Assembly (NCBI GenBank): GCA_963827685.1
Contig: CAWHBU010000003.1
Span: 832,001 to 896,000, forward strand
Length of the DNA: 64,000 nucleotides
Source: an uncultured delta proteobacterium
GTDB taxonomy: Bacteria > Desulfobacterota > BSN033 > UBA1163
Direction of reading: 5' to 3'
Part shown: positions 12,935 to 36,019 of the stretch, piece after piece
How the letters are laid out: each line of letters begins with the position of its first letter
Numbering within the stretch: the first letter of the stretch is position 1
Program-made: the position numbers and the translations under genes
Notes under the pieces: model-generated
The model's database searches: none
The model's input: only the letters and a program-made list of their open reading frames with translations
Told to the model about the DNA's origin: nothing

Positions 12935-13030
12935 CGTGTCGGTGATTCGTGATTGGTGATTCGTCAACGAAGCATTTAAAATTCTTTTCATCCTTTTCTA
13001 CGAGTCACGAATCACGAGACACGTTTCACG
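12935..13030. repeat. Empty heptamer hairpin element between recN and argA
   Basis: Arms cgtgtcggtgattcgtgattggtgattcgt and acgagtcacgaatcacgagacacgtttcacg; the recN TGA lies in the outermost unit. Confidence 0.88.
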
Positions 13031-14705: not shown

Positions 14706-14717
14706 AACCCTAAATGA

Positions 14718-14825
14718 TGAGTTAAGAATTAAGAGTTATGAGTTATGAATTGCTGAATTATGAATAATAAAACTCTAAATTTTTAACTCTGAATTCTAAA
14801 CTCTAAACTCTTAACTCTAAACTCA
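14718..14825. repeat. GAGTTWA / TWAACTC heptamer inverted arms downstream of the four-helix gene
   Basis: gagttaagaattaagagttatgagttatgaatt ... aactctaaatttttaactctgaattctaaactctaaactcttaactctaaactc. Confidence 0.85.
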
Positions 14826-14829
14826 TTTT

Positions 14830-15186
14830 TCATTGTCCCTTAGATGTCTTGACGATTGAAGTCAATATTTTTCTCAATTCCTCTGACTCTTTCAAAAGGT
14901 AATCTAATTCGTTACTTGTTGTTAACTCAGAAACTTTTATCAATCTCAACCAGTAATTCGATTCTCTTGCCTCTTTTAATGCAACTCCCATTTTATATGT
15001 GAAGTCCTTTTTACTAAACCCTCCCGTTGCTTCCTCAACATTAGCTCCTACGGAAGTACCAGCTTCCAATAATTGACCTCCGATTTTATAACCAGCATGA
15101 TTTCTTGGTAAGTTTTGAATAAATTTAATAGTTCTTACTGCAAACTCGAAACTCCTTCCTTTGATATCTCTTTTATTCTTTTCCAT
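14830..15186 (-). CDS. Four-helix-bundle protein (23S rRNA IVS/Avd-like), subfamily A
   Basis: RSFEFAVR..QLLEAGTSVGANVEEA...KKDF..K..VALKEARES.YWL; visibly AT-rich; interrupts nadK-recN. Confidence 0.9.
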   Translation of the reverse strand: MEKNKRDIKGRSFEFAVRTIKFIQNLPRNHAGYKIGGQLLEAGTSVGANVEEATGGFSKKDFTYKMGVALKEARESNYWLRLIKVSELTTSNELDYLLKESEELRKILTSIVKTSKGQ

Positions 15187-15196
15187 TTTTTATCTC

Positions 15197-15229
15197 AATT
15201 CTAAACTCTAAACTCTTAACTCTTAATTC
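15197..15229. repeat. AACTCTW heptamer arm upstream of the four-helix gene
   Basis: aattcta aactcta aactctt aactctt aattc, directly after the nadK stop in mRNA sense. Confidence 0.85.
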
Positions 15230-15230
15230 G

Positions 15231-16106
15231 TTATCTTTCCCCCCATTTCAGCTTTTCTCTCAGCAATTCAAAATAGTGCCGGTAGGGCGATTTGATCAGA
15301 AGGATACGCCCCTCCGCCTTTCCCACCTCCACCACGTCCTCAAATTCCAGAGTGAATCCCTGTTGGCCATCCAAGGTAAGGGTCACTTCCTCGTTTCTCG
15401 ATTTGAGCAATGCCCGAATCTTCACATCATCGGGGATGATAATAGGACGGATGGTTAACGTATGAGGACAAATGGGAGTGATGATGATCGTATGGAGCGA
15501 TGGGTAAACAATCGGTCCCCCAGCGGAAAGATTGTAGGCGGTTGAACCCGTAGGCGTCGATATAATCAACCCGTCGGATCTAAAAGTCGATAGATATTCA
15601 CCGTTGACGGTGGTCTCGAGATCAATAATCCGCGCTAAAGCTCCTTTGTTGATGACTGCGTCGTTGAGCACGATGAACTCGGCAATCCCTTTCCCTCTTC
15701 GAATCACACCTGCTTTCAAGATTTCTCTCTCATTGATTTCAAAGTCATCCCGAAGGACTCTCTCTAAAACGGAGTACAATTCATCTAAGGTAATTTCTGT
15801 CAAGAAACCGAGTCCACCCAAGTTGACGCCAAGGATAGGTATATTCCTATTCCATACTTGGCGGGCAACACTGAGAAGCGTTCCATCTCCTCCAAGGACG
15901 ATAATCATCTCCACATCGGGTGGCATTTCCTCCCTCTCGACGGACTTCCAATAACCCTCTGGGGGGGTTGGGCTAAGGAGCTCCTCCATCTCTTTCTCAA
16001 TATAGACTTCGATCTTCTTCGGCCGCAGCCATTCCACTAAATTGCTGACGATGGTGGCAGCCTCTGGTTTATTCTTCTTAGCAATGATGCCGATTCGATT
16101 CATCAT
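15231..16106 (-). CDS. nadK: NAD(+) kinase
   Basis: GGDGT, LNDAV, DGLIISTPTGSTAY and LDGQ. Confidence 0.97.
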   Translation of the reverse strand: MMNRIGIIAKKNKPEAATIVSNLVEWLRPKKIEVYIEKEMEELLSPTPPEGYWKSVEREEMPPDVEMIIVLGGDGTLLSVARQVWNRNIPILGVNLGGLGFLTEITLDELYSVLERVLRDDFEINEREILKAGVIRRGKGIAEFIVLNDAVINKGALARIIDLETTVNGEYLSTFRSDGLIISTPTGSTAYNLSAGGPIVYPSLHTIIITPICPHTLTIRPIIIPDDVKIRALLKSRNEEVTLTLDGQQGFTLEFEDVVEVGKAEGRILLIKSPYRHYFELLREKLKWGER

Positions 16107-16119
16107 TCACCCCACTAAA

Positions 16120-16193
16120 CCCGTGTCTCGTGCCCGCCGTCCGTGTCCGGGAAAAAATAATTTAAACGGGCACGGTTCACGGTCACGGACACG
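16120..16193. repeat. Empty CCGTGT/ACACGG 6-7-mer hairpin element
   Basis: ccgtgtctcgtgcccgccgtccgtgtcc ... acgggcacggttcacggtcacggacacg. Confidence 0.78.
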
Positions 16194-16196
16194 TTT

Positions 16197-17228
16197 TTAT
16201 CTCAGATGATACTTCTCTCGTATTTTTTTCGACAACTCCCTTAAAACCTCAAACGCCTTCTCTACGGTCTTCTCTTTGTCCGGATTTAGCAGATTGCAGG
16301 TGGCTGGCGCTAAAAGAGATTGGCGAAGTAGTCTTTTGCGATCTACTCCTTTTCGGGAGAGGTCCTCCCAAAAAGTCTCCAGCTTCTCCAGCAGAGAACC
16401 AATCGTCTCCTGCTCCAAAATTTCCGTGTAAGTTGGAACGATTCCCCAAGAGACGATGCCTCCTCTCTCCACAAAATCTTTTAAGGATAGGTAGTTGATG
16501 ATCACCACTCCACAATTGAAGGAATCGAAGGAAAGGATTTCCATTTTCGATTTGAGGAGAAAGTCCCAATCCGGTTTGGCACAAAGATGAACCCCTTTCG
16601 GCCCTTCTAACCCTTCCAAAAACCGATCCAAATCGTCCTTCGCCTGGAACTCGTTATACCCGGATAACGCACTGAAGATGAGTACCAATCCCGGATCATC
16701 CACCCATACAAAGGCATTGCGATTCTTCTCCCTCAATTCCAGGAATTGTTGATTCACTTTCTTTTGAATAAAATCGAATAGGACTTCTCTGACCTCATCG
16801 TGGTAGATAATCGATTTCCGGTTCTCGTCCACGATCTTCAATCCCAAACTGATTGGGCTGATCATCTGACCCCGGATGGCAGAATATCGCGAAAGGTCTC
16901 TTTCTAAGAACCGATGGTACACAAGGGAAAACTCCTTTGTCAACCGAAAGGTCTGAGGATCATCTGCCTTTTTGAAATAGGAAGGAAGTTCTTCGTAAAA
17001 AAGGGAAAGGTCGAAATTGATTTTTTGATGAACAGGATCGATCCTCACACCAGGAAAATTTTCCAAAGCCTGGACATACATGTCCTCAAAGTAACTGACT
17101 TGGGGAAGTTGGGGCCAAAATGGAATATCCAGAGACAGGGCGACCTCGAGAGCTCTTTCAATATCTTGATGGGGCATAATGCCCATGGCCGTTGTCTGAC
17201 AATTGGGTGAGAAACCTAAACTGGCCAT
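16197..17228 (-). CDS. Core (MetE C-terminal-like) methionine synthase family protein
   Basis: IPFWPQLP, EDMYVQ, GVHLC (HxC Zn motif), WGIVPT and APATC. Confidence 0.7.
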   Translation of the reverse strand: MASLGFSPNCQTTAMGIMPHQDIERALEVALSLDIPFWPQLPQVSYFEDMYVQALENFPGVRIDPVHQKINFDLSLFYEELPSYFKKADDPQTFRLTKEFSLVYHRFLERDLSRYSAIRGQMISPISLGLKIVDENRKSIIYHDEVREVLFDFIQKKVNQQFLELREKNRNAFVWVDDPGLVLIFSALSGYNEFQAKDDLDRFLEGLEGPKGVHLCAKPDWDFLLKSKMEILSFDSFNCGVVIINYLSLKDFVERGGIVSWGIVPTYTEILEQETIGSLLEKLETFWEDLSRKGVDRKRLLRQSLLAPATCNLLNPDKEKTVEKAFEVLRELSKKIREKYHLR

Positions 17229-17944
17229 TAAGGGAGCCCTTCCAATAGGCGGACAAGCCTATGAATCTCTCCCCGGTTCGGAAGATAAGGATCTAACATT
17301 AAAGCCGCTTTTAAATGGTAGATAGCCTTCTGTCTGTTCTGGAATTCATACCAGTAGATTTTCCCTAAATTCAAATGGATAAGAGGATCGTAAGGATTGA
17401 TTCGAATTTCCCACTCAAATTCCGTAACCGCTTTATCAAACTTCTTTTGCGCAGCACAGACGATGGCCAAGAAACCGTGGACCTGCGGGATATAAGGATA
17501 TATCTTGAGAAATCTTTGAAAAGCCTCTTCAGACTCTTCGTAGCGACCGTTTTGAAAGTAGATCATCCCGAGAGAGTAATAGGCCATATACAGCGTGGGA
17601 TCGACTTCTACCGACTTCTTTTCCATCGCAATCGCCTTATCGATATCTCCCATTTGTCTGTAGGTGAGGCCAAGGTTATAATACGCCTCGCCAAATTTCG
17701 GATCGATTTCTATGGCCTTTTGGTATGTTTCAAGCGACTTGTCGTATATTCCTGCGGTAAAATAGGCAATGCCAAGGTTGACATACGGTCGAGCCTTGTT
17801 GGGGGATTTCTTCACACAATCTGCAAAGAGGGCTATCGGATCCTTCCAAAGCGCATTCCTTGAATAGGTCCCAATGGAGAGAAGAAGAATGACGATGACA
17901 AATATTGCGGTCTCAACGGGATGGAATCTGGTCTTCTCCGTCAA
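17228..17944 (-). CDS. Single-TM TPR protein (C-terminal module of a TMTC-like protein)
   Basis: TM helix, then TYSRNALWKDPIALF...KSPNKARPYVNLG, then TPR repeats. Confidence 0.85.
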   Translation of the reverse strand: MTEKTRFHPVETAIFVIVILLLSIGTYSRNALWKDPIALFADCVKKSPNKARPYVNLGIAYFTAGIYDKSLETYQKAIEIDPKFGEAYYNLGLTYRQMGDIDKAIAMEKKSVEVDPTLYMAYYSLGMIYFQNGRYEESEEAFQRFLKIYPYIPQVHGFLAIVCAAQKKFDKAVTEFEWEIRINPYDPLIHLNLGKIYWYEFQNRQKAIYHLKAALMLDPYLPNRGEIHRLVRLLEGLP

Positions 17945-18672
17945 TTCCCTTGCCCCCTTTTTCGTTCTTGCGCTGCCTCGATGGATACGATTGCCTTCCG
18001 GACCCGTTCGGCATCGGACACGCCGGGATAAGTAAGTGCTTTCCTACAATAGAAAAGGGCATTAGGGTAATCTCCCGATTCATAGTAAATCAACCCTAAT
18101 TCAGCGTGGCCATAACCACTGTCAGGATGGTGTTTCAATTCCTCTTCAAAGCATCGAATCGCCTTCGCCCGTTGTCCTAATCCTTTATAGGCAAGCCCCA
18201 GATTGATGTTGGCATTTTCGTAATCGGGTTTGGCTTCTAAACATTTTTTATAGGCCTCAATCGCATCCCTGTACAGCCCCTTTTGATAATAGGCAATACC
18301 GAGGTTGTAAAAGGAATCCGGAAAACTTGAATCCAATTCGATAGCCTTTTTATAATGGCTAATAGCCTCATCCATAAGCCCTTTTTCGTAATAAACCAGG
18401 CCTAAGTTATACATCGACAGAGAATAGTAAGGATTCAAGCTCAGTGCCTCCTCATATTCTTCTTGGGCATCGTCCCATCTTCCCAGTTCGTGATAGGCAA
18501 AACCTAAATTGTGGTGAGTCCTCTCTTTCTTAGGGAACTTTTTAACACTGGCCTTCCACAACTCCACTTCACTCTTCCACAGAAAATTTCGCTGATAAGT
18601 ACCCATTGATAGCAAAAGTATGATTATGAATAAGATAGACCAGTCGGCTATCACCTTGCCAAACTTTTTCAT
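17941..18672 (-). CDS. Single-TM TPR protein, paralog of 17228-17944
   Basis: TYQRNFLWKSEVELW...KERTHHNLG plus TPRs; the ORF-track extension to 18741 is element-derived, so ATG 18672 is preferred. Confidence 0.85.
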   Translation of the reverse strand: MKKFGKVIADWSILFIIILLLSMGTYQRNFLWKSEVELWKASVKKFPKKERTHHNLGFAYHELGRWDDAQEEYEEALSLNPYYSLSMYNLGLVYYEKGLMDEAISHYKKAIELDSSFPDSFYNLGIAYYQKGLYRDAIEAYKKCLEAKPDYENANINLGLAYKGLGQRAKAIRCFEEELKHHPDSGYGHAELGLIYYESGDYPNALFYCRKALTYPGVSDAERVRKAIVSIEAAQERKRGQGN

Positions 18673-18687
18673 ATTCAAATTATGGGC

Positions 18688-18798
18688 TTGACCGGTATGT
18701 GCCCCGCAAGCCCCGCCGTTTAGGGTGGGGTCGAGGGGCACAATATAAACGGAAACTACCTCACCGGGAAGCCGCGCCCTTTAGGGCGTGGAGCTTCA
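18688..18798 (+). mobile_element. Non-autonomous IS200/IS605-type palindromic element (PATE-like)
   Basis: TTGAC at the left end, subterminal hairpins AAGCCCCGCCGTTTAGGGTGGGG and AAGCCGCGCCCTTTAGGGCGTGG, ending in GCTTCA. Confidence 0.7.
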
Positions 18799-20058
18799 TT
18801 TATCAACCTCCATGGCTGGTTTTAAGAAAGGCAGCTTGTATTTCCATTTCTCTATTCCCCTCACCACTAATAAACTAAAAAGAACAAACGGGCCCACGGC
18901 CGGGAGGTAAAGCCTATGTTCGTACACCATTTCCAAAGGAAAGATCGACAATTCAATCACCAGATTTCCAAAATACCACAAGATGCAGAACGAGAGCACG
19001 GGTCTCTTTTTGGCAGTCCAGATACTGTACCCGATAAGCGCGACAATGATCAGAATAGAAATCAGGGTCGTGGGAGGATCAAGAATCGTTTTGGAGATGG
19101 GGAAATCGTAATCCAGATTGAGACGGGACGGATGAGGAAATGCAAGGAGAGTCAAATAGTAAAGGACAACGCGAGATTGGGTGAGAACCCTCTCCAACAT
19201 GGTGAACGGCCGATCTTGATAACCTTCTATGGTAACGTCAATATACCTTTTCCCCCAGATGATAAACCCAAAGGCTCCCAGAACGAGGAGGATGCCAATA
19301 AGAGTAAAAAGGATCTTTTTGCCCCTTGGGCTCAGATCAAATTTTTGGAGAAAATAAAACTCATAGAGAGCAATGAATAACGGAAGAATGGCCACATTCT
19401 CTTTTGAAAAAACTCCCAATAGATAACTCAACACCGTTCCTCCAAAGTAAAAAACCCGAGGCCGCCCCGTGGATAGTCTTCCCTTGATATAGAGAACCAG
19501 AGAGAGGAGATAAAACATCCCGGCCATGCTGGCCATTCGTTGAACAATGTAAGTGACCGATTGGGATTGAATGGGATGGGAGACAAAGATCAAGCTTGAA
19601 AAAAGAGCCACTTTATACGAAATGGGTCCGTATTTTTCTTTTAATGATGGTAGATTGAACGTCAGCAGAAGGAACCAATACAAGAAGATTCCCGAGGCGA
19701 TGTGGATGAAGAAATTCACCAGATGGTAACCAAATACATTGAATCCTCCAAAATAGTAATTCAGTGCAAAAGTAAAATACGAAAAAACTCGAATGGACAC
19801 CACGTAAGTATTTTTGATCAGCCGTTCCAGCCGGTCCCACGTGAGGGCGGTGATCTGGATGTTGGGGTTTTCGACGATATTGGGCCGATCGTCAAAATGA
19901 AATGGGACGTAGAAGGTATTCGAATAGGCCACCAAGGCCACTCCCGCAATCAGTCCCATGGCAATCAGGTGGCGAAAAGAGAATCGCCGTTTCTGCTCTG
20001 TTTTTGGGGGGATCTTCTTTTCGTGGTCCGGTTTTTTATGTTTCTTACGCTTCGCCAT
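18796..20058 (-). CDS. Multi-TM GT-C/TMTC-like membrane protein lacking its TPR tail
   Basis: FHFDD loop, GYHLVN, HPIQSQSVTYIVQR, SKEN, LNLDYD and YEHRLYLP. Confidence 0.82.
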   Translation of the reverse strand: MAKRKKHKKPDHEKKIPPKTEQKRRFSFRHLIAMGLIAGVALVAYSNTFYVPFHFDDRPNIVENPNIQITALTWDRLERLIKNTYVVSIRVFSYFTFALNYYFGGFNVFGYHLVNFFIHIASGIFLYWFLLLTFNLPSLKEKYGPISYKVALFSSLIFVSHPIQSQSVTYIVQRMASMAGMFYLLSLVLYIKGRLSTGRPRVFYFGGTVLSYLLGVFSKENVAILPLFIALYEFYFLQKFDLSPRGKKILFTLIGILLVLGAFGFIIWGKRYIDVTIEGYQDRPFTMLERVLTQSRVVLYYLTLLAFPHPSRLNLDYDFPISKTILDPPTTLISILIIVALIGYSIWTAKKRPVLSFCILWYFGNLVIELSIFPLEMVYEHRLYLPAVGPFVLFSLLVVRGIEKWKYKLPFLKPAMEVDK

Positions 20059-21013
20059 GTTCTTTCCTTTTCTTTTGGTTTTGGAGTTGCCGGAGTAAGT
20101 ATACCACTCCGATCAATCCGATTTCAATGAGGGTCATCCAGATACGAGTGAGAATAGAAACGATCACCGCAACTGGAGTTGCCATCATAAATGAGAGAAG
20201 GTAGACCAAAACCCCTTCCCTCACCCCCAACCCGCTGGGAGCAAAGAGCGCGATCAAACCTACCGTGCTCGAGATGGCCAAGGCTCCTGTCAAAAATAAA
20301 ATGTATTGCGGCGCCACAGAATATACGGAGTCAACCAAGAGGTAAAAACCGACTCCTCCGACTATCCAAGAAATGATACAGACAAATAATATCCAAAGAA
20401 TATTAGAGTATGAAATAGACAAGGAGATGGGTTCCCTCTTAAATCGAACAAGGACCCAGTTTAATATTTTTTGAAGAACTCGGGGATGGAGAGAGATAAA
20501 GCCTGAGAGGAATAGAAAGGCCAGCCACATGGATTGTCTTCCAGTGTAAAATGGCCTGACTTCTTTAAAAAAGATAAGGGCAGCTAAAAACATCAGACCA
20601 GCCGCCATAACAATGGTAGCTGTTTCAAGATAAAGGGCAATCGAAATGGCCTTCTTCGGTTTCCCCCTGGATTCGTAAAAATAGAAACGACTGAGGAGAA
20701 GCCAGACTTTCCCCGGCAGATATTTACCCAATTGCGAATAAAGCCAACTCTCCAATGTCTCCCTGAAGGAGATAGCAATTTTTAATTTAAGAGTGATGAG
20801 ATACCATGCCCATATTTGTATAAGATAACTGAAGGCAAAGATGAGGGTGGATAATATTAGAGGAAATATTTCGAAGGTGAACGAAGCGTCCTTCACCTGA
20901 TTCCAATTGTTCCATACCATCTTCCCCAAAAAAAGAAAAATGGCAAAGACAATGGCCCATCGAAGAACTTGCAGATAACGGGGGCTTGACTTTTTATCAT
21001 TCAAGAGCTTCAT
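20045..21013 (-). CDS. Lysylphosphatidylglycerol-synthase-TM/UPF0104 flippase-like membrane protein
   Basis: SQLGKYLPGK, APSGLGVREG and multiple TM helices. Confidence 0.8.
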   Translation of the reverse strand: MKLLNDKKSSPRYLQVLRWAIVFAIFLFLGKMVWNNWNQVKDASFTFEIFPLILSTLIFAFSYLIQIWAWYLITLKLKIAISFRETLESWLYSQLGKYLPGKVWLLLSRFYFYESRGKPKKAISIALYLETATIVMAAGLMFLAALIFFKEVRPFYTGRQSMWLAFLFLSGFISLHPRVLQKILNWVLVRFKREPISLSISYSNILWILFVCIISWIVGGVGFYLLVDSVYSVAPQYILFLTGALAISSTVGLIALFAPSGLGVREGVLVYLLSFMMATPVAVIVSILTRIWMTLIEIGLIGVVYLLRQLQNQKKRKEHGEA

Positions 21014-21033
21014 ATTCCTTTTTTACCGTTCCT

Positions 21034-22731
21034 CTATTCCCCTTCATCCCGTATGAGTAATTTTGCGAACACAGCCCGACCCCGATACACTTTCACGGTT
21101 CGATATTGAGGTAAGCTTACGTCATTGAATAAGAGATATTGCCATTCTTGCTCCATCCGGTAGGGTGTTCGGGCGCTTGTGAGAAGGATGGCATCCACAG
21201 GGATTCGTTTGTGGATTTCATAAATCATCTTGACCTGTGTCGGCAGCCATCCACATAATTGATCTCCTTCCCACTCTAAAATCTCGGGAAGGTCCGTCCA
21301 GATGACTTGATTTCCTTTCAACTCATGCCTTAAGAATTCGTTTAGTCTTTCTGCTTCCTGCTTTTCCACCAGGAAGCCAAACTGAGGAGTCTTGTAGTCC
21401 AATACGGGTGATTTATTAGGCGCAAAAGTAGTATAGAGAACGGGAAGCATAAAAAACACAAAAAATAAAAAAAAGAGAATTAAATAAATCCTCTGCTGCC
21501 ATGAAGCCTTGATTGCCGAGATTAGGGGGGTTGATACTCGCAAGAATCCTTTGGCTGCAAAGATAATAATCATCGGGATAAAGAATATAAAGAAACGAGT
21601 CGTAGAAAAATTCGCCGAAGAGATAAAAAGGATTTGGGATAAGAATAGAAAAAGGAATAGTGTTTTGATCCTGTTCCAGTCTTGGTTATCTTTCCAGTAG
21701 AACATTTCCAGGAGGAAAAAGGCCGATAGATACAGATTGGAGACGGAGAGGACTTGTTCCATTACGGTCACTAAATTCGTCAGGTATTTAAAGATAAACT
21801 GACCCGGTTCAACTGTTAGGAATTCAAAAAGGGAAGGATCTACAATATTTCGGAAGACATTTTCCCACGGATATTTCTCGGAATAAGACATCAACATAAA
21901 CTTCCCGTAAGAAAAAAGAGGAGACCTTGTCTCCGAAAAACTCCTTATCCCATCAAGAACAATTGGAATAAAAATGCCACTCATAAAAAAGGTTGTTTTC
22001 TTCCAACGGGGCAGATCGGGATAGAAATAGAGATAGACCAAAGTGGGAATGAGGAAAGGATAGATATTATTCCTGACCAACTGACTTATCCCTAAAAGAA
22101 TACCCGCGATAAAAATACCCCTCAAAGTTTTAGCTTTTACGAACAGGAAGAAGAAAAGAAAGAAGATCGGTATGTAGACGGTATCACTCAGTGCAATAAG
22201 ACTAAAATCTAATATTTCCTTGTTAAAAATTAACATCACAGTCGCGATGGCTGCCGTCTTAATATCCAGATACCTTTTGACAAAAAAGAAAAGGAGAATG
22301 ACAAGAATAAAATAGGAGAGATAAGAAGGAAGTAAAGCAACAAAGTCCGAAATCCCAAATAATTTGAAAAATCCGGCTATGATTAAGGGGTATCCGGGGG
22401 GGTGGAAAAATTCGGGTATGGGCGGCTTTTCGAAGAAATTGACATCCACAGGAAAAACAAAATTTTTAACAATGCCTTTCCCATTCGCAATATTTCTTGC
22501 TATCGAAGCAAACTCCCGATCGTCTGACCCAGCAATCTCTTTTGTATGTGTTGAATAAAAACCATACCAGACAATTCCTGCCAAAAGAAGGAGAAGGATG
22601 ACAAACCATTTCGAAGACAGCAGAGAAATTTTCCACCCGTCCTTCTCCTGTTGAGTTACCTTTCTAGGAAGTTCAGTAGCAGCAGTTTTTTTTCGCTTCA
22701 TCCTGAAATGCTCCTCCAAAACGGAACTCAA
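21034..22731 (-). CDS. GT39/ArnT-like (GT-C) membrane glycosyltransferase
   Basis: SDDREFASIARNI, HPPGYP and many TM helices; start uncertain. Confidence 0.72.
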   Translation of the reverse strand: MSSVLEEHFRMKRKKTAATELPRKVTQQEKDGWKISLLSSKWFVILLLLLAGIVWYGFYSTHTKEIAGSDDREFASIARNIANGKGIVKNFVFPVDVNFFEKPPIPEFFHPPGYPLIIAGFFKLFGISDFVALLPSYLSYFILVILLFFFVKRYLDIKTAAIATVMLIFNKEILDFSLIALSDTVYIPIFFLFFFLFVKAKTLRGIFIAGILLGISQLVRNNIYPFLIPTLVYLYFYPDLPRWKKTTFFMSGIFIPIVLDGIRSFSETRSPLFSYGKFMLMSYSEKYPWENVFRNIVDPSLFEFLTVEPGQFIFKYLTNLVTVMEQVLSVSNLYLSAFFLLEMFYWKDNQDWNRIKTLFLFLFLSQILFISSANFSTTRFFIFFIPMIIIFAAKGFLRVSTPLISAIKASWQQRIYLILFFLFFVFFMLPVLYTTFAPNKSPVLDYKTPQFGFLVEKQEAERLNEFLRHELKGNQVIWTDLPEILEWEGDQLCGWLPTQVKMIYEIHKRIPVDAILLTSARTPYRMEQEWQYLLFNDVSLPQYRTVKVYRGRAVFAKLLIRDEGE

Positions 22732-23448
22732 TCATTCTCTCTTTAACAAGAAAAGAAAGTCCTTATAAACACGGATTCGTCCTCTTTCCCCTCTCCTTTT
22801 CAACAATTCGTGATGGGCAATTTCGGGAAACCAATTTTTTGGAATGAATCCATATCGTATCAGATAGAGCATCCACCAACGGCCATTTCGAATGGGATAA
22901 TACTCGAGATGCTCCAATTTCGATTCTTTGAATGCTTGAAGATACTCCTCAACTTTAGGCCTGCCCACCTTTGGATTGTCAGAAACTTGCTCAATGAGAT
23001 AAAATTTTCCACCTTTTTTTAAATATTTGGTCAACTCAGAAATAGTCTTTTTCAATTTTTCACCTTCCATATATTGCAAAACCCATACAGAAAGGATGAT
23101 ATCAAAAAAGTACGAAAGCCCACGGAAGTGCATTCCATCATAAAGCATAAGATCTACATTATTGGCCCTTCGATTCTTTTCAGCCAACTGGATCATCTCG
23201 GGCGTGGCCTCTAAACCGATCACTTTCTTCACTTTCGGAGCAATCCAATAAGAAAATCTTCCGCTCCCGCATCCAAAATCTAAAACGACTTCATCCCCTT
23301 TTAACTCCAGCACTTCTTCTAAGGCTATCTTTTGGAGAAGATCAATATAATGATTCTTATGGCCTTTTCGGTCGGCCGGATCGATGCCCGAAGCTAAAAA
23401 CCCTCTTCGGGCCCTGTTGCTCCAATCTACATTCTCGATCAAATTCAT
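22732..23448 (-). CDS. Class I SAM-dependent methyltransferase
   Basis: VLDFGCGSG motif I. Confidence 0.88.
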   Translation of the reverse strand: MNLIENVDWSNRARRGFLASGIDPADRKGHKNHYIDLLQKIALEEVLELKGDEVVLDFGCGSGRFSYWIAPKVKKVIGLEATPEMIQLAEKNRRANNVDLMLYDGMHFRGLSYFFDIILSVWVLQYMEGEKLKKTISELTKYLKKGGKFYLIEQVSDNPKVGRPKVEEYLQAFKESKLEHLEYYPIRNGRWWMLYLIRYGFIPKNWFPEIAHHELLKRRGERGRIRVYKDFLFLLKRE

Positions 23449-23452
23449 CCCC

Positions 23453-24451
23453 TTACTTTCGAACCATTCTTACCAACCGACTCCCTATTTGAGAACTTCC
23501 CAGTCTTTTGCCCCATTCCCAAATCTTGCATCGAAAGGGATGATAATCTTTCACAAAAGTGCAAACGTCCTTCGACTGACCGCCCCATTTCTCTTTGAAT
23601 CGGAGTAAAGGGAGACCATTAGGATCCGAACCCATAAAATCAAAAAATGAAATCCTTTTCTCAACTGCATTCTCTATCGAAGAATGAACCAATAGCTCAT
23701 TGGGACAGAACTTCAAAAATTCATATTTGGACCCGTTATGGAAATAGTGGGTTGAAGAAGGTGAGTAGATGAGGACCACTCCAGCAATCGCCCCTTCATT
23801 CAGTTCGGCAATCAGGATAGCACCCAATCCTTTTTTTGTCACGATTTCGTAAAGGGTCTCAAACCAGTGTAATGGGTACTTCGCCATAGCCCTATTCCGC
23901 TCCATGGAGGCCAGATAAAGTTTATAAAACATATTGACACCCTCTATCGAATCACCACTACGAATTGTAATCCCGCTCCTTTGGGCTTTTCTAACATCTC
24001 GACGAATATTTTTCCTGTAACCTTCCCAAATCTTCTCTTTATCATACCCTCTCAAATCTAATAGGGTACATTTGGCAGAGATTGGCTTAAAAGACTTAGG
24101 TGGATAGGAATCGGAAAAAGGCGACTCGGTCAAACGGACCTGATCGATTCCTCTCCTCCTAAACTCCTTCTCTAAGAGTTGCAGAAAAGCTGAATAATAA
24201 GGTTTCTCACCGATCAGGTGACCGTACGGAATGGAGGCATATAGAATTTTAAAAATTCTAAAGTTGAGCAATACCCCTGGTAAACCGGCAACGATTTGTC
24301 CTCCGTCCTTCAGACAAAAATAAAGGGGTTGCCCTCCTAACCCCTCTTTGAGCACCTGGCTCCAGACCGATTGATAAAAGATAAGGTCGGTATATCGGGA
24401 GGCAAATTCGTCCCATTCTTGCCCCGGTGATTCGAAAATTGTTAACTCCAT
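23453..24451 (-). CDS. FemAB-like GNAT acyltransferase
   Basis: RRDVRKAQR, PNELL, FDFMGS and FKEKWG. Confidence 0.8.
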   Translation of the reverse strand: MELTIFESPGQEWDEFASRYTDLIFYQSVWSQVLKEGLGGQPLYFCLKDGGQIVAGLPGVLLNFRIFKILYASIPYGHLIGEKPYYSAFLQLLEKEFRRRGIDQVRLTESPFSDSYPPKSFKPISAKCTLLDLRGYDKEKIWEGYRKNIRRDVRKAQRSGITIRSGDSIEGVNMFYKLYLASMERNRAMAKYPLHWFETLYEIVTKKGLGAILIAELNEGAIAGVVLIYSPSSTHYFHNGSKYEFLKFCPNELLVHSSIENAVEKRISFFDFMGSDPNGLPLLRFKEKWGGQSKDVCTFVKDYHPFRCKIWEWGKRLGSSQIGSRLVRMVRK

Positions 24452-24472
24452 TTCAGATTCGAACGCTCCACA

Positions 24473-26383
24473 CTATTTAGACATCCTCTGGTATAGGATA
24501 TTGGCCAGATTTGGATTGATCGCTCTAAGAGTTTTGTATTCTTCCAATGCTAAGTCCTGTCTCCCTGTCACCAAATAAGCAATGCATAAGGAAAAATGGG
24601 CTTCTGCAAAATTCGGCTTTAATCGCAGCGCCTCTCGAAATTGGTTAATGGCCTCCTGATAGTGACCCTGCTCTGACAACGCGACCCCTATGTTGTTGTG
24701 CGCATCAGCATATTCTGGGTCGATCCGGAGCGCTTCTTCAAAATGAGCAATGGCCTCTTGGTACCTCTTTTGACCAGCCAACAGAACCCCCAATCTGCTT
24801 CTTATTTCTACATCATGAGGCTTGATTCGAAGGGCTGCCTTATAATGTCCGATGGCCTCCTCGACCTGTCCCTGTTTGGCAAAAGCGTTCCCAAGGTTAT
24901 AGTGTGCGTCCGCATAATTCGGTTTGATCCTCAAGGCTTCGACATAGTGTAAAATGGCCTCATCATACCTTCCCCGGTCAGCCAGGACGGCTCCCAGATT
25001 GTTATGCGCAAGATAATTGTTAGAAGTGACCTGGATGGCATGTTCAAAGAGGCTCACACTGTTCCGCCAGTGCCTAATCTCGAATCTGGTCGCCACCGCG
25101 CAGATCCCAATCAAAAGACCCGCCGATACAAAAAGGATTGCCTTGCGATAACGCCACCTCGCAATAAAAACAGAGCTGCCTGTGACAATAATGAAAAAGA
25201 GGCCAATTTGCGGAACATATGTGAAGCGGTCAGCCATGGCCTGATCTCCCGTTTGAATCAGACCGATGACCGGCGCCAATGTCAAGAGATACCACAGCCA
25301 TCCGACCAGAAAATAGGAGTGCTTTCGTACTGAATGGATTGCAAAAATTGAAATTCCCAGCAGCAGCAAACCGGCTCCCATAGCTTGCCATAGCGGTATG
25401 CTGTCTGGATAGGGGTAGAAACAAGCCAAAGGATGAGGCCAGATCGTCTTTCCAATGTAGTTGATATATGATATGAGGGCGTTAGAAACCCGCATTCCTA
25501 TCGGGTAGGATTCGATCGTTTTTAAGGCAGCAGTACTTTTTGCTGCAAGAAGGGTCAAAAAGCCCAGAAGAACCGAAAGCATGAAAAAAGGAACTTTTTC
25601 TAAAACTAAGTGACTGACCGTCAAGCTTGAATCTTTTAGATCCTTCAATTGTGTTTGCTTCGAATTGGCATCACTCACAAAAGGCCTTAATTGAAATCGA
25701 CCGAGCGGCCAATAGTCTATCAAAAGCAGTACAAATGGCAAAGTTACTATCATCGGCTTTGCCGTAAGACCCGCAATAAAAAAGAGAAGGACGGTGAGAT
25801 ATCTTTTAGTTCCCCCGCTTTCAACATAATATAGGTAGGCCCACATCGATAAAATCCAAAAAAAGGCACACAAAACATCCTTTCGCTCTGCTACCCACGC
25901 GACCGACTCAACGCGAAGCGGATGGATTGCGAAAAGCATCGCAATGAGGCCACTCAACCAGATGTTATTGAACATTCGGGAAAGAACCAGAAAAAGGATG
26001 ACGACATTGGCTATATGGAACAGTAAATTGGTGAAATGATGCCCCCTCGGATTCAATCCGTACAACTCGTAATCCACCATATGAGAGAGCCAGGTCAATG
26101 GCTGCCATTGAGTGGAAATTGTCGCAGTAAAAGACCAGATGAGGCTTTCCCGGGTCAATCCCGACTGTACATGGGGGTTATGGGTAACATACACGTCATC
26201 GTCAAGATCGACAAATTCAAAGTTCTGAACAGGCCAATAAACGGTCAACGTGACCGCAATCAAAGCCACCCCGATGAACAATTTAAGGCGATGACGCCAC
26301 CATAGCTCCTTGATCTGTTTCAAGCTGGTCTGGCTCGTCGTCTGCTGGCATTTGATTTTCTGTCTGTTCTTAGATTTTGACAC
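24473..26383 (-). CDS. Full-length TMTC-like GT-C membrane protein with C-terminal TPRs
   Basis: DDDVYV, WQPLTWLSH, HPLRVESVAWVAERKD, ADRFTY, WRNSVSLF and TPRs. Confidence 0.88.
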   Translation of the reverse strand: MSKSKNRQKIKCQQTTSQTSLKQIKELWWRHRLKLFIGVALIAVTLTVYWPVQNFEFVDLDDDVYVTHNPHVQSGLTRESLIWSFTATISTQWQPLTWLSHMVDYELYGLNPRGHHFTNLLFHIANVVILFLVLSRMFNNIWLSGLIAMLFAIHPLRVESVAWVAERKDVLCAFFWILSMWAYLYYVESGGTKRYLTVLLFFIAGLTAKPMIVTLPFVLLLIDYWPLGRFQLRPFVSDANSKQTQLKDLKDSSLTVSHLVLEKVPFFMLSVLLGFLTLLAAKSTAALKTIESYPIGMRVSNALISYINYIGKTIWPHPLACFYPYPDSIPLWQAMGAGLLLLGISIFAIHSVRKHSYFLVGWLWYLLTLAPVIGLIQTGDQAMADRFTYVPQIGLFFIIVTGSSVFIARWRYRKAILFVSAGLLIGICAVATRFEIRHWRNSVSLFEHAIQVTSNNYLAHNNLGAVLADRGRYDEAILHYVEALRIKPNYADAHYNLGNAFAKQGQVEEAIGHYKAALRIKPHDVEIRSRLGVLLAGQKRYQEAIAHFEEALRIDPEYADAHNNIGVALSEQGHYQEAINQFREALRLKPNFAEAHFSLCIAYLVTGRQDLALEEYKTLRAINPNLANILYQRMSK

Positions 26384-26385
26384 GG

Positions 26386-27528
26386 CTATTTTTGAATCAC
26401 CATCTTCTTCACTTTTCTTACGATCTGCTTCACATCCTCTTCCTTCATCACCGAATGGAGTGGAAGGGTTAATTCTCTTCCGCTCACCTCTTCTGTTCTC
26501 GGAAGATCCCCTTTTTTGTAACCGGACTGGTTGCGATAAAGGGAAAAAAGATGGACCGGCGGATAATGAACGCTTGTCTGAATTCCAAAATCCTTCAGCC
26601 TCTCCATCACCCTATTTCTATTGATTCGCGGTGCCACCAGAATCGGGAAGAGATGATAAGAAGGATTGCCCCTAAATTTTGAAAAGGGAATAGAGATTTC
26701 ATCAACCTCTTGAAGTCCCTCTCGATAAATCTCAACCAGCCTTTTTCTCTTCCTATTATTTCGATCCAATTTTTTCAACTGGACCAATCCCAGAGCGGAT
26801 TGAATTTCTGTTGTTCGATAGTTATAACCGACTTCCTGGATATCATAAGATGAGAGGTGACCGCGGTACTTATCCCACGAAAGCGCCTCCATCCCGTGAG
26901 ACCTCATCCTTCGAACCTTGTCCGCCCATGCTTTATTCCGAGTCACCACCATCCCACCTTCGCCGGTCACCAAATTCTTATTCGAAAAAAAACTGAAACA
27001 GCCTATATCTCCGACCAACCCGCACTTTTTCCCCCGATATTCTGCGCCAGGTGCATGAGCTGCGTCCTCAATTACATAAAGACCATGCCTCTTGGCTATT
27101 CCCAGGATGGCCTTCATCTCACAGGGATAGCCTCCGTAATGCATCACCATAATAGCCTTTGTCTTTTCAGTAATCTTTTTTTCAATTTCTTCAGGAGAAA
27201 TGTTCAGATCTTCTTCGCTTGCAATATCGGCAAAGACAGGTTTTGCCCCGGCATAAAGTACGGCATTGGCTGTAGCAATGAAGGTAAGAGAGGGAAGAAT
27301 CACCTCATCTCCTTCCTTTATACCAAGGCTTGCCAAGGCTAAATGGAGGGCAGCTGTTCCATTCGCAACAGCAATCGCATATCCTCCGCCAAGATATTCC
27401 GAAAAGGCTTTTTCAAACTTTTCAGTCACGGGGCCTGTAGAAAGCCACCTCGAGCGCAGGACCCTGAGAACCTCTTGTTCTTCTTCTTTCCCAAGATCAA
27501 TATCAGAAAGGGGGTAACGCCATTTCAT
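26386..27528 (-). CDS. DegT/DnrJ/EryC1/StrS sugar aminotransferase
   Basis: NGTAALH, EDAAHA, SFFSNKNLVTGEGG and GYNYR. Confidence 0.95.
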   Translation of the reverse strand: MKWRYPLSDIDLGKEEEQEVLRVLRSRWLSTGPVTEKFEKAFSEYLGGGYAIAVANGTAALHLALASLGIKEGDEVILPSLTFIATANAVLYAGAKPVFADIASEEDLNISPEEIEKKITEKTKAIMVMHYGGYPCEMKAILGIAKRHGLYVIEDAAHAPGAEYRGKKCGLVGDIGCFSFFSNKNLVTGEGGMVVTRNKAWADKVRRMRSHGMEALSWDKYRGHLSSYDIQEVGYNYRTTEIQSALGLVQLKKLDRNNRKRKRLVEIYREGLQEVDEISIPFSKFRGNPSYHLFPILVAPRINRNRVMERLKDFGIQTSVHYPPVHLFSLYRNQSGYKKGDLPRTEEVSGRELTLPLHSVMKEEDVKQIVRKVKKMVIQK

Positions 27529-27530
27529 CG

Positions 27531-27609
27531 TCGTGACTCGTGAATCGTGACTCGTGAATCGTGACTCGTGAATCGGATGAACGAATCACCAATCACCAGC
27601 ACGAATCAC
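27531..27609. repeat. Heptamer inverted arms downstream of the four-helix gene
   Basis: Perfect (TCGTGAC TCGTGAA)x3 at 27531-27572, then cgaatcaccaatcaccagcacgaatcac. Confidence 0.9.
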
Positions 27610-27619
27610 TTATTTCATA

Positions 27620-27976
27620 TCATCGTTTCAAAGTCCTAATAAGGCCGGTCAACATCTTTGCTACACGACCATATCTTTCTTTTAATGACGCATAATCTTG
27701 TTCCGAAAGGTAGCCCAGGTCTCTTGACAAAAGCAGCTGATAGCTTATTTCAGCGGATGATCCCCTCGCAATTCCTACAAACTGTCGATATTCCTTTGTA
27801 CCCAACCGAGATGCTCCTTCCACTATATTTACAGGTATAGAATATGCAGACCTTCGTATTTGTGAAGAAAGGCCAAATTTTTCTTCAGAAGGGAATTTTT
27901 CAGTTATTTTATAAATATCGATTGTAAGAGAGTGAGATAACTTGAACACATCCATATCTTGTGCACAATTTATCAT
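27620..27976 (-). CDS. Four-helix-bundle protein (23S rRNA IVS/Avd-like), subfamily B
   Basis: FPSEEKFGLSSQIRRSAYSIPVNIVEG...F..IARGS..E..YQL.L..DLGY; ATG 27976 follows AAAGGAGG. Confidence 0.92.
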   Translation of the reverse strand: MINCAQDMDVFKLSHSLTIDIYKITEKFPSEEKFGLSSQIRRSAYSIPVNIVEGASRLGTKEYRQFVGIARGSSAEISYQLLLSRDLGYLSEQDYASLKERYGRVAKMLTGLIRTLKR

Positions 27977-27991
27977 AAATTGCCTCCTTTG

Positions 27992-28021
27992 ACGAATCAC
28001 GAATCACGAGTCACCAACACG
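27992..28021. repeat. Heptamer arm upstream of the four-helix gene
   Basis: acgaatc acgaatc acgagtc accaacacg. Confidence 0.88.
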
Positions 28022-28023
28022 TA

Positions 28024-29004
28024 TTATAATGGATAACTCCCCACCTTAAATCGGGACAAATTCTTTCGATACCACTCAATGGTCTCTCTCAATCCCTCCT
28101 CAAGCGTATGTCGGGGTGCCCATTGAAAAAGTTTCTGAGCCAAATGGGTATCAGAAAGAAGTTGCATCACTTCACTCTTCTCAGGACGAATTCTACGATC
28201 CTCAACCTCAATCTCTCCTTGTCTCCCCATCAGACCAAGAATCTTCTTGACCAATTCTTCAATGGAGATGTCTATTCCACCTCCAATGTTGATCACTCTC
28301 CCCACCGCCCCTTCGCATTTCCCAACTTGAATAAAACCCCTCACCGTGTCTTTCACAAAAAGAAAATCCCGCCGAGGCTGAGTATTGCCCAAACGGATTT
28401 TTTTACCCTCAATGGCTTGTGAGATGATGGTGGGAATGATCGCCCGGAGGGATTGCCGAGGCCCAAACGTATTGAAGGGTCGAACCGTGGCAATGGGAAG
28501 ACCGAAGGAAAGATGGTAGCTCTCTGCCAACTTATCTGCTGCGATCTTACTGGCAGCATAGGGAGATTGAGCTTGGAGTGGATGTTTTTCATCAATGGGG
28601 ACATATTGGGCTGTCCCATAGACTTCACTCGTAGAGGTATGGATGAACCTTTCCACTGTGCCCTCTTCGAGACAGGCATTGAGGAGATGAGCCGTGCCAA
28701 GGACATTTGTCTGAATAAAATCGAATGGGTGAATATAAGAATAAGGAATAGCAATGAGGGCACCCAGATGAAAGACTTTATGACACTCCTTCACCACCTT
28801 TCTCACACCATCCGGATCCTTCAGATCCCCTGGAATTACTTCAATTTGATTTTGAATGTCTTTGGGCAACTCTTCCAAAAGGCCCCTTTCATCTCTCGAA
28901 TTGTATCGGACAAAGGCCCTGACATCTTCTCCCTGTCTGACCAACTCCTCAGTGAGATGGCTTCCGATAAATCCTCCCGCACCCGTTACTAGAATCTTTG
29001 CCAT
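28024..29004 (-). CDS. NAD-dependent nucleotide-sugar 4,6-dehydratase/epimerase
   Basis: TGAGGFIG, ALIAIPYSY, STSEVYG and YAASK. Confidence 0.93.
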   Translation of the reverse strand: MAKILVTGAGGFIGSHLTEELVRQGEDVRAFVRYNSRDERGLLEELPKDIQNQIEVIPGDLKDPDGVRKVVKECHKVFHLGALIAIPYSYIHPFDFIQTNVLGTAHLLNACLEEGTVERFIHTSTSEVYGTAQYVPIDEKHPLQAQSPYAASKIAADKLAESYHLSFGLPIATVRPFNTFGPRQSLRAIIPTIISQAIEGKKIRLGNTQPRRDFLFVKDTVRGFIQVGKCEGAVGRVINIGGGIDISIEELVKKILGLMGRQGEIEVEDRRIRPEKSEVMQLLSDTHLAQKLFQWAPRHTLEEGLRETIEWYRKNLSRFKVGSYPL

Positions 29005-29020
29005 AATAACCTCACATTTG

Positions 29021-29127
29021 TCGTGTTAGTGATTGGTGATTCGTGATTCGAAAAGATTTATAGTCCTTTAGCTATCATCTAGCTATCATCATCATTGACG
29101 ATTCACGAATCACGAGTCACGACTCAC
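29021..29127. repeat. Empty heptamer hairpin element
   Basis: tcgtgttagtgattggtgattcgtgattcg ... acgattcacgaatcacgagtcacgactcac; the loop contains TAGCTATCATC x2. Confidence 0.88.
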
Positions 29128-29132
29128 TGTTT

Positions 29133-29860: not shown

Positions 29861-29966
29861 CTCGTGTTCGTGACGCGTGTCACGTGTCCGTTATCCGTGT
29901 TTCGTGTTGGTGATTCGTGATTGTGTTTCAAAATCTACGAATCACCAACACGATTCACCAATCACG
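29861..29966. repeat. Empty heptamer hairpin element with one extended arm
   Basis: ctcgtgttcgtgacgcgtgtcacgtgtccgttatccgtgtttcgtgttggtgattcgtgattg ... acgaatcaccaacacgattcaccaatcacg. Confidence 0.85.
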
Positions 29967-36018: not shown

Positions 36019-36019
36019 C

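Follow-up and report, generated by a model that had tools for sequence, protein, structure and literature searches.

For some thirty years, intervening sequences (IVSs) with a gene of the S23p family (PF05635) have been regarded as curiosities of ribosomal RNA (rRNA), without an established function or mode of movement. Here we describe elements of the same gene family that reside between ordinary protein-coding genes in a 64,000-nucleotide stretch of DNA from an uncultured delta proteobacterium (contig CAWHBU010000003.1 of assembly GCA_963827685.1, positions 832,001 to 896,000), hereafter the window. Two of them are our main subject: cassette 1, in the spacer between nadK and recN, and cassette 2, in the spacer between an epimerase gene and a DegT-type aminotransferase gene.

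As far as the consulted sections of the IVS literature go, an S23p open reading frame (ORF), terminal inverted repeats and excision by RNase III are established for rRNA IVSs, with the precedent of a 28-bp terminal stem cut by this enzyme; their origin has been sought in a remnant of transposition or in a mobile element whose ORF aids its mobility (PMC4990558). In filamentous cyanobacteria, short tandemly repeated repetitive (STRR) sequences with a 7-bp unit fold into hairpins in the spacers of co-transcribed genes, hupS-hupL being one example; the consulted part of that literature gives their function as unknown, with transcript stabilisation or translational coupling as proposals (PMC2670836). 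Heptamer direct repeats have also been described in Beggiatoaceae, in a source whose searched passages do not mention IVSs or four-helix genes (PMC4679880). Two genome papers list PF05635 genes, but only as strain-specific.

We find that the cassettes of the window belong to a class of elements whose arms are degenerate tandem heptamers, C-poor in the 5′ arm and G-poor in the 3′ arm. They are probably IVS-type elements: a sense-oriented PF05635 gene housed in an intercistronic stem-loop of heptamers and exchanged between sites through its arms.

Inverted heptamer arms bracket PF05635 genes

Read in mRNA sense, both cassettes consist of an arm A1, a PF05635 gene, a second arm A2, a short loop and a complementary arm B (Table 1). 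This A-gene-A-loop-B layout, built from unrelated repeat units at the two sites (GAGTTWA and GTGATTC), had been noticed in a first-pass annotation, and both the letters themselves and the period-7 arrays called by Tandem Repeats Finder (TRF) bear it out. The elements fill their spacers tightly: A1 of cassette 1 begins 2 nt past the nadK stop and the recN ATG (14705) lies 3 nt beyond the end of arm B, while in cassette 2 the DegT ATG (27528) directly abuts arm B.

The source genome (G000, a 5.23-Mb assembly in 14 contigs) contains 18 PF05635 matches, three of them within the window. Nearly all of these loci are bracketed by inverted arms of degenerate tandem 6-8-mers, with a unit specific to the locus (GGCAGAA, GCGGAAT, GGTTGAG, GGATACT, GGAATAA, GGGCATA and others, in mRNA sense). 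We scored inverted arms by local alignment of the upstream flank against the reverse complement of the downstream flank; RNAduplex on the whole 130/170-nt flanks was uninformative, as long sequences pair everywhere. A score of at least 14 is reached by 14 of the 18 PF05635 genes (78%), against 12 of 1474 other ORFs of 90-200 aa (0.8%) and 13 of 600 random ORFs. The four PF05635 genes below the threshold include two pseudogenes, in which the end of the called ORF puts the downstream window in the wrong place.

By eye, most of the 18 loci have the plain order A-gene-B. The three-armed order occurs at three, namely the two cassettes and C2:768311, and its mirror form A-loop-B-gene-B at about four. 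Thus the layout drawn by the first-pass annotation from two sites does recur at other four-helix loci, and it is the less common form of a rule that is generally A-gene-B. In it, the gene is placed immediately upstream of a complete hairpin of its own repeat family, or inside the 5′ arm of that hairpin.

The rule extends well beyond this genome. A search with the cassette 2 protein alone gave 30 loci in Thermodesulfobacteriota, Acidobacteriota, Phycisphaerae, Cytophaga, Saccharibacteria, a Rickettsiales metagenome-assembled genome (MAG), Persephonella and gammaproteobacteria, and, among archaea, in Methanophagales, Nitrosotalea, Halobacteriota and Methanosarcinales; two of the loci (L032 and L033) belong to near relatives of the window's genus, of which they are not independent. 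An inverted-arm score of at least 14 is reached by 20 of the 30, judged against the own-genome null of 1474 ORFs since several loci share arm families and cross-locus scores are unusable as a null; the TRF periods of their flanks are mostly 7, sometimes 6 or 8. From a scan of metagenome contigs with the cassette 1 protein, 80 of 401 relatives were kept, 63 of them with enough flank. Inverted arms exceed all 60 shuffles at 51 of these 63 loci, and at 36 of the 44 that are less than 70% identical to the query. A direct repeat between upstream and downstream flanks, the signature of A-gene-A, is seen at 17 of the 63 and 6 of the 44 distant loci.

On one gammaproteobacterial chromosome, three PF05635 genes lie inside 23S rRNA, as judged from Rfam large-subunit matches, and are thus classical IVSs. 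All three end in tandem heptamers (CAGAGGA x4 against TCTGTCC x4; TCAGAAG-type; CTAGAGA-type), and two that occupy the same 23S position in two rrn copies carry different arms. The presence of heptamer arms in true 23S rRNA IVSs argues that the cassettes of the window are the same kind of element in another host transcript. Insertion into rRNA itself was considered for them and rejected: their flanks are protein-coding (nadK/recN and epimerase/DegT), and the window has no rRNA match in Rfam.

Several loci deserve separate mention. In a Desulfohalobiaceae MAG (L038) and a Persephonella MAG (L039), the 3′ arm lies ~190 nt past the PF05635 stop, inside the coding region of the next, epimerase/fucose-synthase-like gene, where it encodes 'PPTTYHLPPITY' and 'FPLSFIPYPLS'; from this position, the stem would enclose the four-helix gene together with the first ~50 codons of its neighbour. 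A 1.97-Mb contig holds three PF05635 genes (L035, L037 and L048) within ~22 kb, all with multi-array arms of CGTGAT/CGTGGT type, and is a local cluster of same-family cassettes in another lineage. In the source genome, a PF05635 ORF (L024, C2:294228-294539) reads through its own 3′ arm into a repetitive protein tail (NKPNKPNEPNKPNEPNEPNNS). Arms of the AACCCAAT family, as at C2:294228, also flank a 119-aa ORF with no family assigned (C4:801476-801835), which has the highest inverted-arm score among small ORFs outside PF05635 (31).

The same hairpins occur without a gene

TRF recovers all four empty GTGATTC/GAATCAC hairpins that had been listed for the window (Table 1). Genome-wide it returns 2803 rows, in which period 7 is the commonest (724 rows, corresponding to 237 canonical units) and period 14 accounts for another 199. 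After merging, 1407 arrays yield 112 inverted pairs. The gap between paired arms is below 100 nt in 91 pairs, 100-200 nt in 4, 200-400 nt in none and at least 400 nt in 16. Among the nine pairs with gaps of 400-600 nt, eight enclose a PF05635 gene, and the pairs with wider gaps are hairpins of adjacent spacers that flank ordinary genes. The distribution is thus bimodal, which indicates that a hairpin holds either a whole gene or none.

A few of the 92 short-gap pairs overlap, and two or three represent the A2-loop-B part of a cassette; the empty hairpins number roughly 90. Of the 92, 80 are flanked by co-directional ORFs, 7 by convergent and 5 by divergent ones, at a median of 13 nt from the end of the upstream ORF and 12.5 nt from the next start. 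This setting and tight spacing mark them as intercistronic elements and not as terminators. An intrinsic terminator was rejected on the same ground, with only 7 of 92 hairpins between convergent genes, and for want of a T run after B, which is directly followed by the next start codon. The empty sites match what is described for STRR sequences: period 7 in TRF, and an intergenic hairpin between co-directional genes.

So many hairpins raise the question of chance. In a genome rich in STRR-type intercistronic hairpins that act as mRNA stabilisers or coupling elements, small genes might simply happen to fall between neighbouring copies; the 724 period-7 rows, the roughly 90 empty hairpins that fill spacers between co-directional genes, and the few ordinary genes bracketed by hairpins of adjacent spacers would all be expected. 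Coincidence is nevertheless scarcely credible to us, given that arms flank 78% of PF05635 genes and 0.8% of other small genes, and given the same architecture in unrelated phyla, in archaea and inside 23S rRNA, and arms that co-vary with the gene lineage (see below).

Within the window, the GTGATTC repeat family is locally clustered, with 10 other arrays at most 30 kb from cassette 2. Further GTGATTC-related arrays lie at 31131-31164, 694-731, 36615-36645 and 61584-61618, some of them lone arms without an obvious partner. The start of the cassette 2 gene is likely the ATG at 27976 rather than the GTG at 28000 of the ORF list. The frame of the third cassette has no ATG, GTG or TTG before the TTG at 36081, so that the usual first ~10 residues are missing, and a sigma-70-like TTGACA-17 nt-TATAAA occurs at 36465-36493, just past its 3′ arm.

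Table 1 Cassettes, neighbouring genes and empty hairpins in the window (SD, Shine-Dalgarno sequence; NTP, nucleoside triphosphate).
Feature	Position	Strand	Details
NAD kinase gene (nadK), upstream neighbour of cassette 1	15231..16106	-	Pfam NAD_kinase and NAD_kinase_C
nadK stop codon	15231-15233	-	
Cassette 1 arm A1	15195..15229	-	Units GAGTTAA/GAGTTTA/GAATTGA (GAGTTWA); C-poor; TRF 15200-15223, period 7
Cassette 1 PF05635/TIGR02436 four-helix-bundle gene	14830..15186	-	118 aa; Pfam and TIGR02436 profile matches
Cassette 1 arm A2	14770..14826	-	Direct copy of A1, ~8 units; TRF 14770-14824, period 7, 7.9 copies
Cassette 1 loop	~14761-14769	-	~9 nt
Cassette 1 arm B	14709..14760	-	Complementary to A, G-poor; ATAACTC/TTAACTC units; TRF 14713-14765
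recN-like SMC/AAA gene, downstream neighbour of cassette 1	13026..14705	-	Pfam SMC_N and AAA_23
NAD-dependent epimerase/dehydratase gene, upstream neighbour of cassette 2	28024..29004	-	Pfam
Epimerase stop codon	28024-28026	-	
Cassette 2 arm A1	27991..28020	-	Units GTGTTGG/GTGACTC/GTGATTC (GTGAYTC); TRF 27992-28014
Cassette 2 PF05635/TIGR02436 gene	27620..27976	-	118 aa; profile matches; AAGGAGG (SD) precedes ATG
Cassette 2 arm A2	27582..27609	-	TRF 27584-27609
Cassette 2 loop	27576-27581	-	6 nt
Cassette 2 arm B	27529..27575	-	(GATTCAC GAGTCAC) x3; TRF 27531-27575, period 14, 100% matches
DegT/DnrJ/EryC1 aminotransferase gene, downstream neighbour of cassette 2	26386..27528	-	Pfam
Third cassette, plain A-gene-B	36019..36454	+	Arm A 36019-36046 (GTGATGG units); arm B 36411-36454
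Third cassette PF05635 open frame	36051-36410	+	Profile match
Empty GTGATTC-type hairpin, FabH-like / PmbA/TldD genes	7502..7582	-	TRF
Empty GTGATTC-type hairpin, GNAT / recN genes	12942..13031	-	TRF
Empty GTGATTC-type hairpin, NTP-transferase / epimerase genes	29021..29127	-	TRF
Empty GTGATTC-type hairpin, glycosyltransferase / NTP-transferase genes	29862..29966	-	TRF

Arms are oriented with transcription

Seventeen of the 18 PF05635 genes are co-oriented with both neighbours, for which the coin-flip chance is about 7e-5. The arms follow the same direction. On the mRNA strand, G outnumbers C in the 5′ arm of 15 of the genome's 16 scorable cassettes and of 17 of 18 cross-taxon loci, and the metagenome loci show this by 41 to 10 (26 to 10 among the distant ones); C makes up only 9-12% of the 5′ arms. 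Empty hairpins between co-directional genes are polarised likewise (64 against 14, with 3 ties; binomial p 9e-9). Replication strand does not account for the bias, which tracks the gene strand on both the leading (43:12) and the lagging (21:2) strand as inferred from GC skew.

This polarity means that the hairpins are not symmetrical objects, and points to a constraint linked to transcription or to RNA that acts on filled and empty forms alike. One explanation would be the avoidance of an exposed C-rich, G-poor stretch, a loading site for Rho, before the partner arm has been made; it fails for the archaeal members.

Both cassettes are predicted to fold as nested stems

In full-length folds of both cassettes, A1 pairs with the distal and A2 with the proximal part of B. 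The fold of cassette 2 has -152.8 kcal/mol (z -4.48), a value that none of 100 shuffles equals. Partition-function folds of all five orthologous GAGTTWA cassettes show this nested arrangement too. A closing stem of IVS type, between A1 and distal B, is therefore present in both minimum-free-energy (MFE) and ensemble folds, and is weaker in cassette 1 than in cassette 2. Arm B is predicted to be shared between A2, in an inner hairpin, and A1, in an outer stem that loops out the gene.

The first-pass annotation had proposed that B can pair with either the nearby or the distant A, giving two alternative RNA folds. The premise stands: complementarity is about equal, with arm-only duplexes of -33.4 (A1:B) and -38.0 kcal/mol (A2:B) in cassette 1, and of -43.0 and -36.2 kcal/mol in cassette 2. 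The conclusion is not supported, as folding predicts one nested structure that uses both A copies, in the window and in 5/5 orthologues. In mini-constructs, the nested fold reaches -40.9 (cassette 1) and -60.7 kcal/mol (cassette 2), compared with -36.2 and -35.8 kcal/mol when A1 is blocked and -28.7 and -38.8 kcal/mol when A2 is blocked. With duplexes of similar energy and a nested fold that is best, alternative pairing is feasible and a simultaneous nested structure is what is predicted.

These energies bear on the possibility of an RNA switch, in which the choice of B between A2 and the distant A1 would regulate the four-helix gene or the downstream cistron. Comparable duplexes in both cassettes, the position of A1 directly upstream of the ribosome-binding region of the cassette gene and a three-arm layout kept in all five orthologues over large divergence are what such a switch would show. 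We regard it as distinctly improbable: the predicted folds engage both A copies at once, most PF05635 loci have two arms only and so lack the means for a mechanism general to the family, and the window gave no match to an Rfam family and no ligand-binding or conserved unpaired element.

Related genomes carry filled, empty and swapped alleles

We compared the nadK-recN spacer across 16 genomes belonging to the genus and family. Five (G000, G010, G011, G001 and G014) have the GAGTTWA cassette in the order A1-gene-A2-loop-B, and four have another PF05635 gene between GTGTCCG/CGGACAC arms in the order A-gene-B (G009 and G004, decayed in G006 and G012). G015, G005, G002 and G016 have empty heptamer hairpins, which belong to three families; G013 and G007 (L012/L013) have a short GTAG-type palindrome like those of repetitive extragenic palindromic (REP) sequences, and G018 has an 8-nt spacer without any element. 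The empty hairpin of G015 matches the A-loop-B part of the filled cassette of G011. The GTAG-type palindromes show that the same spacer is used by two kinds of intergenic element. In G006 (L007) and G012 (L009), the decayed gene is interrupted by a short palindromic element of TAATAACCCC...GGGGGGTTACAA type, which recurs in the mosaic spacer of G009 described below and is apparently a second small mobile repeat.

Three spacers of the polysaccharide cluster (glycosyltransferase to NTP-transferase, NTP-transferase to epimerase, and epimerase to DegT) are variable too, and their filled and empty alleles share arms. Site 29862-29966, empty in the window, holds the cassette 2 gene (84.6% nucleotide identity) exactly in the loop in relative L033, between near-identical arms. 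Site 29021-29127 is filled in G004 by a third PF05635 gene, with arms that resemble the empty hairpins found there in G010, G002 and G009. Sites that are empty in the window are thus filled in relatives, as would be expected if empty sites can be filled, which the first-pass annotation had supposed. In the epimerase-DegT spacer, the GTGATTC cassette of G000 and G005 is replaced by a GTGTCCG cassette in G004, G010 and G002. G009 (L065) has a 720-nt mosaic there, with a GTGTCCG-type left arm, a GTGAATC-type right arm and an unrelated ORF between them; judged by eye, this ORF resembles a DUF559-type endonuclease domain, and G/C-rich palindromic repeats lie on its flanks. Presence is thus sporadic among relatives, the same spacers being filled, empty or replaced in congeners.

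The same cassette is also found at different sites. The GTGTCCG-type gene at the nadK site of G009 is 93.7% and 92.0% identical to the epimerase-site copies of G010 and G002, whose adjoining epimerase genes are only 86.5% and 77.7% identical in the same comparisons. Cassette identity above that of the flanking genes implies that cassettes moved or were exchanged between sites more recently than the genomes diverged. The epimerase-site copy of G004 is only ~76% identical to those of G009, G010 and G002.

Deletion-type joints occur in contigs of four metagenome runs compared with positions 12500-31500. In a contig from a peat metagenome, 14791 is connected to 15197: 405 nt are skipped, 27 letters at the junction suit both sides, and the shorter side has 70; such a junction is expected from recombination between A2 and A1, or from a relative that was never filled. 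Weaker joints are 14824->15200 (depth 2), 14745->15193 (with 15 nt intervening) and 27562->27992 (with 26 nt intervening and a side of 23). According to the first-pass annotation, recombination between the A copies would delete the gene, and an empty hairpin would remain. Alleles that lack the gene and are joined inside the A repeat agree with this (G015 against G011, and the 14791/15197 joint), but deletion must be rare, since the layout of cassette 1 has been kept under purifying selection across dS >1.5.

Gene-sized units present or absent at hairpins, the same cassette at different sites and several contig joints that link different GTGATTC hairpins would also suit an integron-like or other site-specific system, with arms that serve as sites for a dedicated recombinase excising circles and reinserting them at empty hairpins. 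We find this very improbable. The arms differ from cassette to cassette and have no shared core, no recombinase adjoins the cassettes of the window, and cassettes are single and scattered through housekeeping and polysaccharide operons rather than arrayed; the joints between hairpins may be artefacts of k-mer assembly.

The four-helix protein is conserved and inherited with its arms

Both cassette proteins match PF05635 (23S_rRNA_IVP; E 3e-20 for cassette 1 and 1.3e-37 for cassette 2) and TIGR02436 ('four helix bundle protein', with a cut-off of 24 bits), which they match with scores of 94.8 and 122.4 bits. The closest solved structure for the cassette 2 protein is PDB 2GSC (E 6.7e-23), that is Xcc0516, a homologue given as a toroidal homopentamer in the consulted part of PMC4990558, citing Lin 2006. 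Among orthologues of cassette 1 in five genomes, four of them congeners, the ratio of nonsynonymous to synonymous substitution (dN/dS) is 0.05-0.14, with dS from 0.34 to saturation. A low ratio across such distances indicates that cassette 1 is old at its site and its protein under purifying selection. Decay occurs elsewhere: 3 of the 18 genome matches have in-frame stops, and one more appears truncated on reading. The cassette genes match no PADLOC or other defence-system model, and we obtained no other functional hit and know of no catalytic motif for the family. A gene for RNase III is present in the genome.

Arms and gene are co-inherited. Of the 153 pairs formed by the 18 loci, those that rank first to third in protein similarity (76, 64 and 62% identity) are also the top three in arm similarity, with arm scores of 24, 23.5 and 20.5 against 9.8 +/- 1.2 for pairs below 45% protein identity. 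In addition, 10 of the 18 cassettes have relatives dispersed in the genome, with 3-90 other arrays that share at least four repeat 8-mers.

These two observations speak for the main rival to our interpretation, a partnership like that of REPINs (REP doublets that form hairpins) and RAYTs (REP-associated tyrosine transposases). The four-helix protein would be the trans-acting factor of its own hairpin family, binding the stems and promoting their spread, maintenance or conversion, and the empty hairpins would be non-autonomous derivatives. The association across bacteria, archaea and rRNA IVSs, the purifying selection on a protein nearly always in sense orientation and the ring form of Xcc0516 fit as well, and Avd relatives of the family bind nucleic acid. 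We nonetheless consider such a partnership unlikely. Besides the lack of a known catalytic motif and of a functional hit, in PADLOC or otherwise, a search for arm motifs within a protein subfamily found none common to more than one third of the loci. Eight of the 18 cassettes have unique arms, and large hairpin families such as AGCGCAT (31 arrays) and AAATCCC (27 arrays) were matched to no cassette. The genome's own RAYT genes use ordinary GTAG-type REPs: RAYT-like ORFs of IS200-type Y1 class at C6:428144-428668 and C2:956005-956478 are flanked by such palindromes.

A proposed model of exchange through the arms

We now return to the interpretation of the cassettes as IVS-type elements and propose how they might be maintained and exchanged. 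The element would be transcribed as part of the host operon, and its closing stem would keep the flanking cistrons adjacent. By analogy with rRNA IVSs, this stem is probably a site of double-strand RNA processing by RNase III, which would make the insertion tolerable. Among hairpins of one family, cassettes may be gained, lost and swapped when the arms serve as substrates of homologous recombination or gene conversion. A double crossover or gene conversion between a filled and an empty hairpin would yield A-gene-B; a single crossover through one arm would yield A-gene-A-loop-B or its mirror A-loop-B-gene-B; and recombination between A copies would remove the gene, an empty hairpin remaining. 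The tandem make-up of the arms could stem from slippage under selection for a long, register-tolerant stem.

This recombination model accounts for the three layouts, the bimodal gaps, the shared arms of filled and empty alleles and the occurrence of the same cassette at different sites of one family. It leaves the period of seven and the role of the protein unexplained.

A number of points weigh against the interpretation. The model does not explain how hairpins arrive in new spacers, and 8 of the 18 cassettes have arms without dispersed copies in the genome. The fold of cassette 1 (-105.2 kcal/mol, z -1.64) is not clearly better than chance, 6 of 100 shuffles folding as well, and its arms are imperfect in a regular way: in each unit, GAGTTTA set against the complement of ATAACTC forms 5 bp and leaves a 2-nt mismatch. 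In a test for strand-specific stability, which would have been a sign of G:U pairing, empty hairpins split 40:40, with no difference between strands. To our knowledge most archaea are without RNase III, and archaeal members have the same arms, hence this enzyme is not the universal reason for them. With 25-55 nt, the arms come close to the shortest length that RecA-type recombination can use. Insertion through symmetrical arms would go in either direction, so the sense bias of 17 in 18 needs added selection. Finally, the metagenome joints come from k-mer contigs, and some may belong to other organisms or be assembly artefacts.

A wider reading, which we offer tentatively and think unlikely, is that PF05635 proteins and their heptamer stems make up a single class of hairpin-resident cassettes that is universal among bacteria and archaea. 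Ribosomal IVSs would be the special case noticed first, STRR-like hairpins would be gene-less derivatives or landing pads, and the toroidal protein would bind or protect the stems, or drive their conversion or spread. If true, this would be a new kind of mobile element, without a transposase or recombinase of known family.

Whatever the mechanism, our data indicate that elements of one type lie between ordinary operon genes in many phyla, archaea included, and are built to one simple plan: inverted arms of tandem heptamers, of which the C-poor one comes first. They tie the IVS to a second old puzzle, the STRR-like intergenic heptamer hairpins. Related genomes supply natural filled, empty and swapped alleles at defined sites, and several questions can now be tested: whether and by what agent the stem is cut, whether the protein binds its own arms, and whether exchange needs RecA or the protein. 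For annotation, genes of a 'four helix bundle protein' and their flanking arrays could be called as single elements.

Relation to described elements

Several known systems resemble the cassettes in part. The Avd proteins of diversity-generating retroelements (DGRs) are distant kin in sequence and fold, with 24.5 bits for NF033474 and 27.8 bits for bAvd PF22296, both below the cut-offs; homology of PF05635 and Avd is noted in the consulted part of PMC10053308. Identity with Avd was rejected, as the NF033474 cut-off is 80 and the single RVT_1 match of the genome (C4:393223) lies far from all 18 loci. An integron cassette was rejected because the arms have no shared core and the cassettes are single and scattered, a judgement made without an integrase search of the genome.

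As in REPIN-RAYT systems, a gene sits between inverted repeats that are also dispersed as intergenic hairpin-forming doublets, and each gene lineage has its own repeat family. Unlike them, the gene encodes a four-helix bundle of ~120 aa and the repeats are tandem heptamers instead of GTAG-type palindromes; membership was rejected, since the bracketed gene is PF05635 and not a Y1 (IS200-like) transposase. The REPIN side of this comparison is drawn partly from general knowledge. The empty hairpins of the window fit the description of STRR sequences. They differ in lineage, in the many unit families of a single genome (237 canonical units) and in the link to PF05635 and the polarity with transcription, neither of which is found in the STRR literature searched (PMC2670836).

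Literature outside subscription journals, supplements and database family notes gave no description of tandem-heptamer arms as a property of PF05635 genes and, within the same scope, nothing on their intercistronic residence, the polarity of the arms or a link to empty heptamer hairpins. What is already known are rRNA IVSs with an S23p ORF and STRR hairpins; the intercistronic setting, the heptamer-arm rule, the polarity and the link to empty hairpins appear to be new, though a prior description may exist.

The closest relatives remain the 23S rRNA IVSs of Leptospira, Coxiella, Xanthomonas and Brucella. The host of the window's elements is different, presumably an operon mRNA entered between a stop and the next start and not helix 9, 25 or 45 of 23S rRNA, and so are the C-poor 5′ arm, the nested three-arm variants and the dispersed empty hairpins of the same family. 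Common to both are the PF05635/S23p family, an ORF in the sense of the host transcript, complementary termini that form a long stem and, in the rRNA IVSs examined here, tandem-heptamer arms. Both are sporadic among strains, and horizontal transfer has been proposed for IVSs in the consulted part of their literature (PMC4990558).

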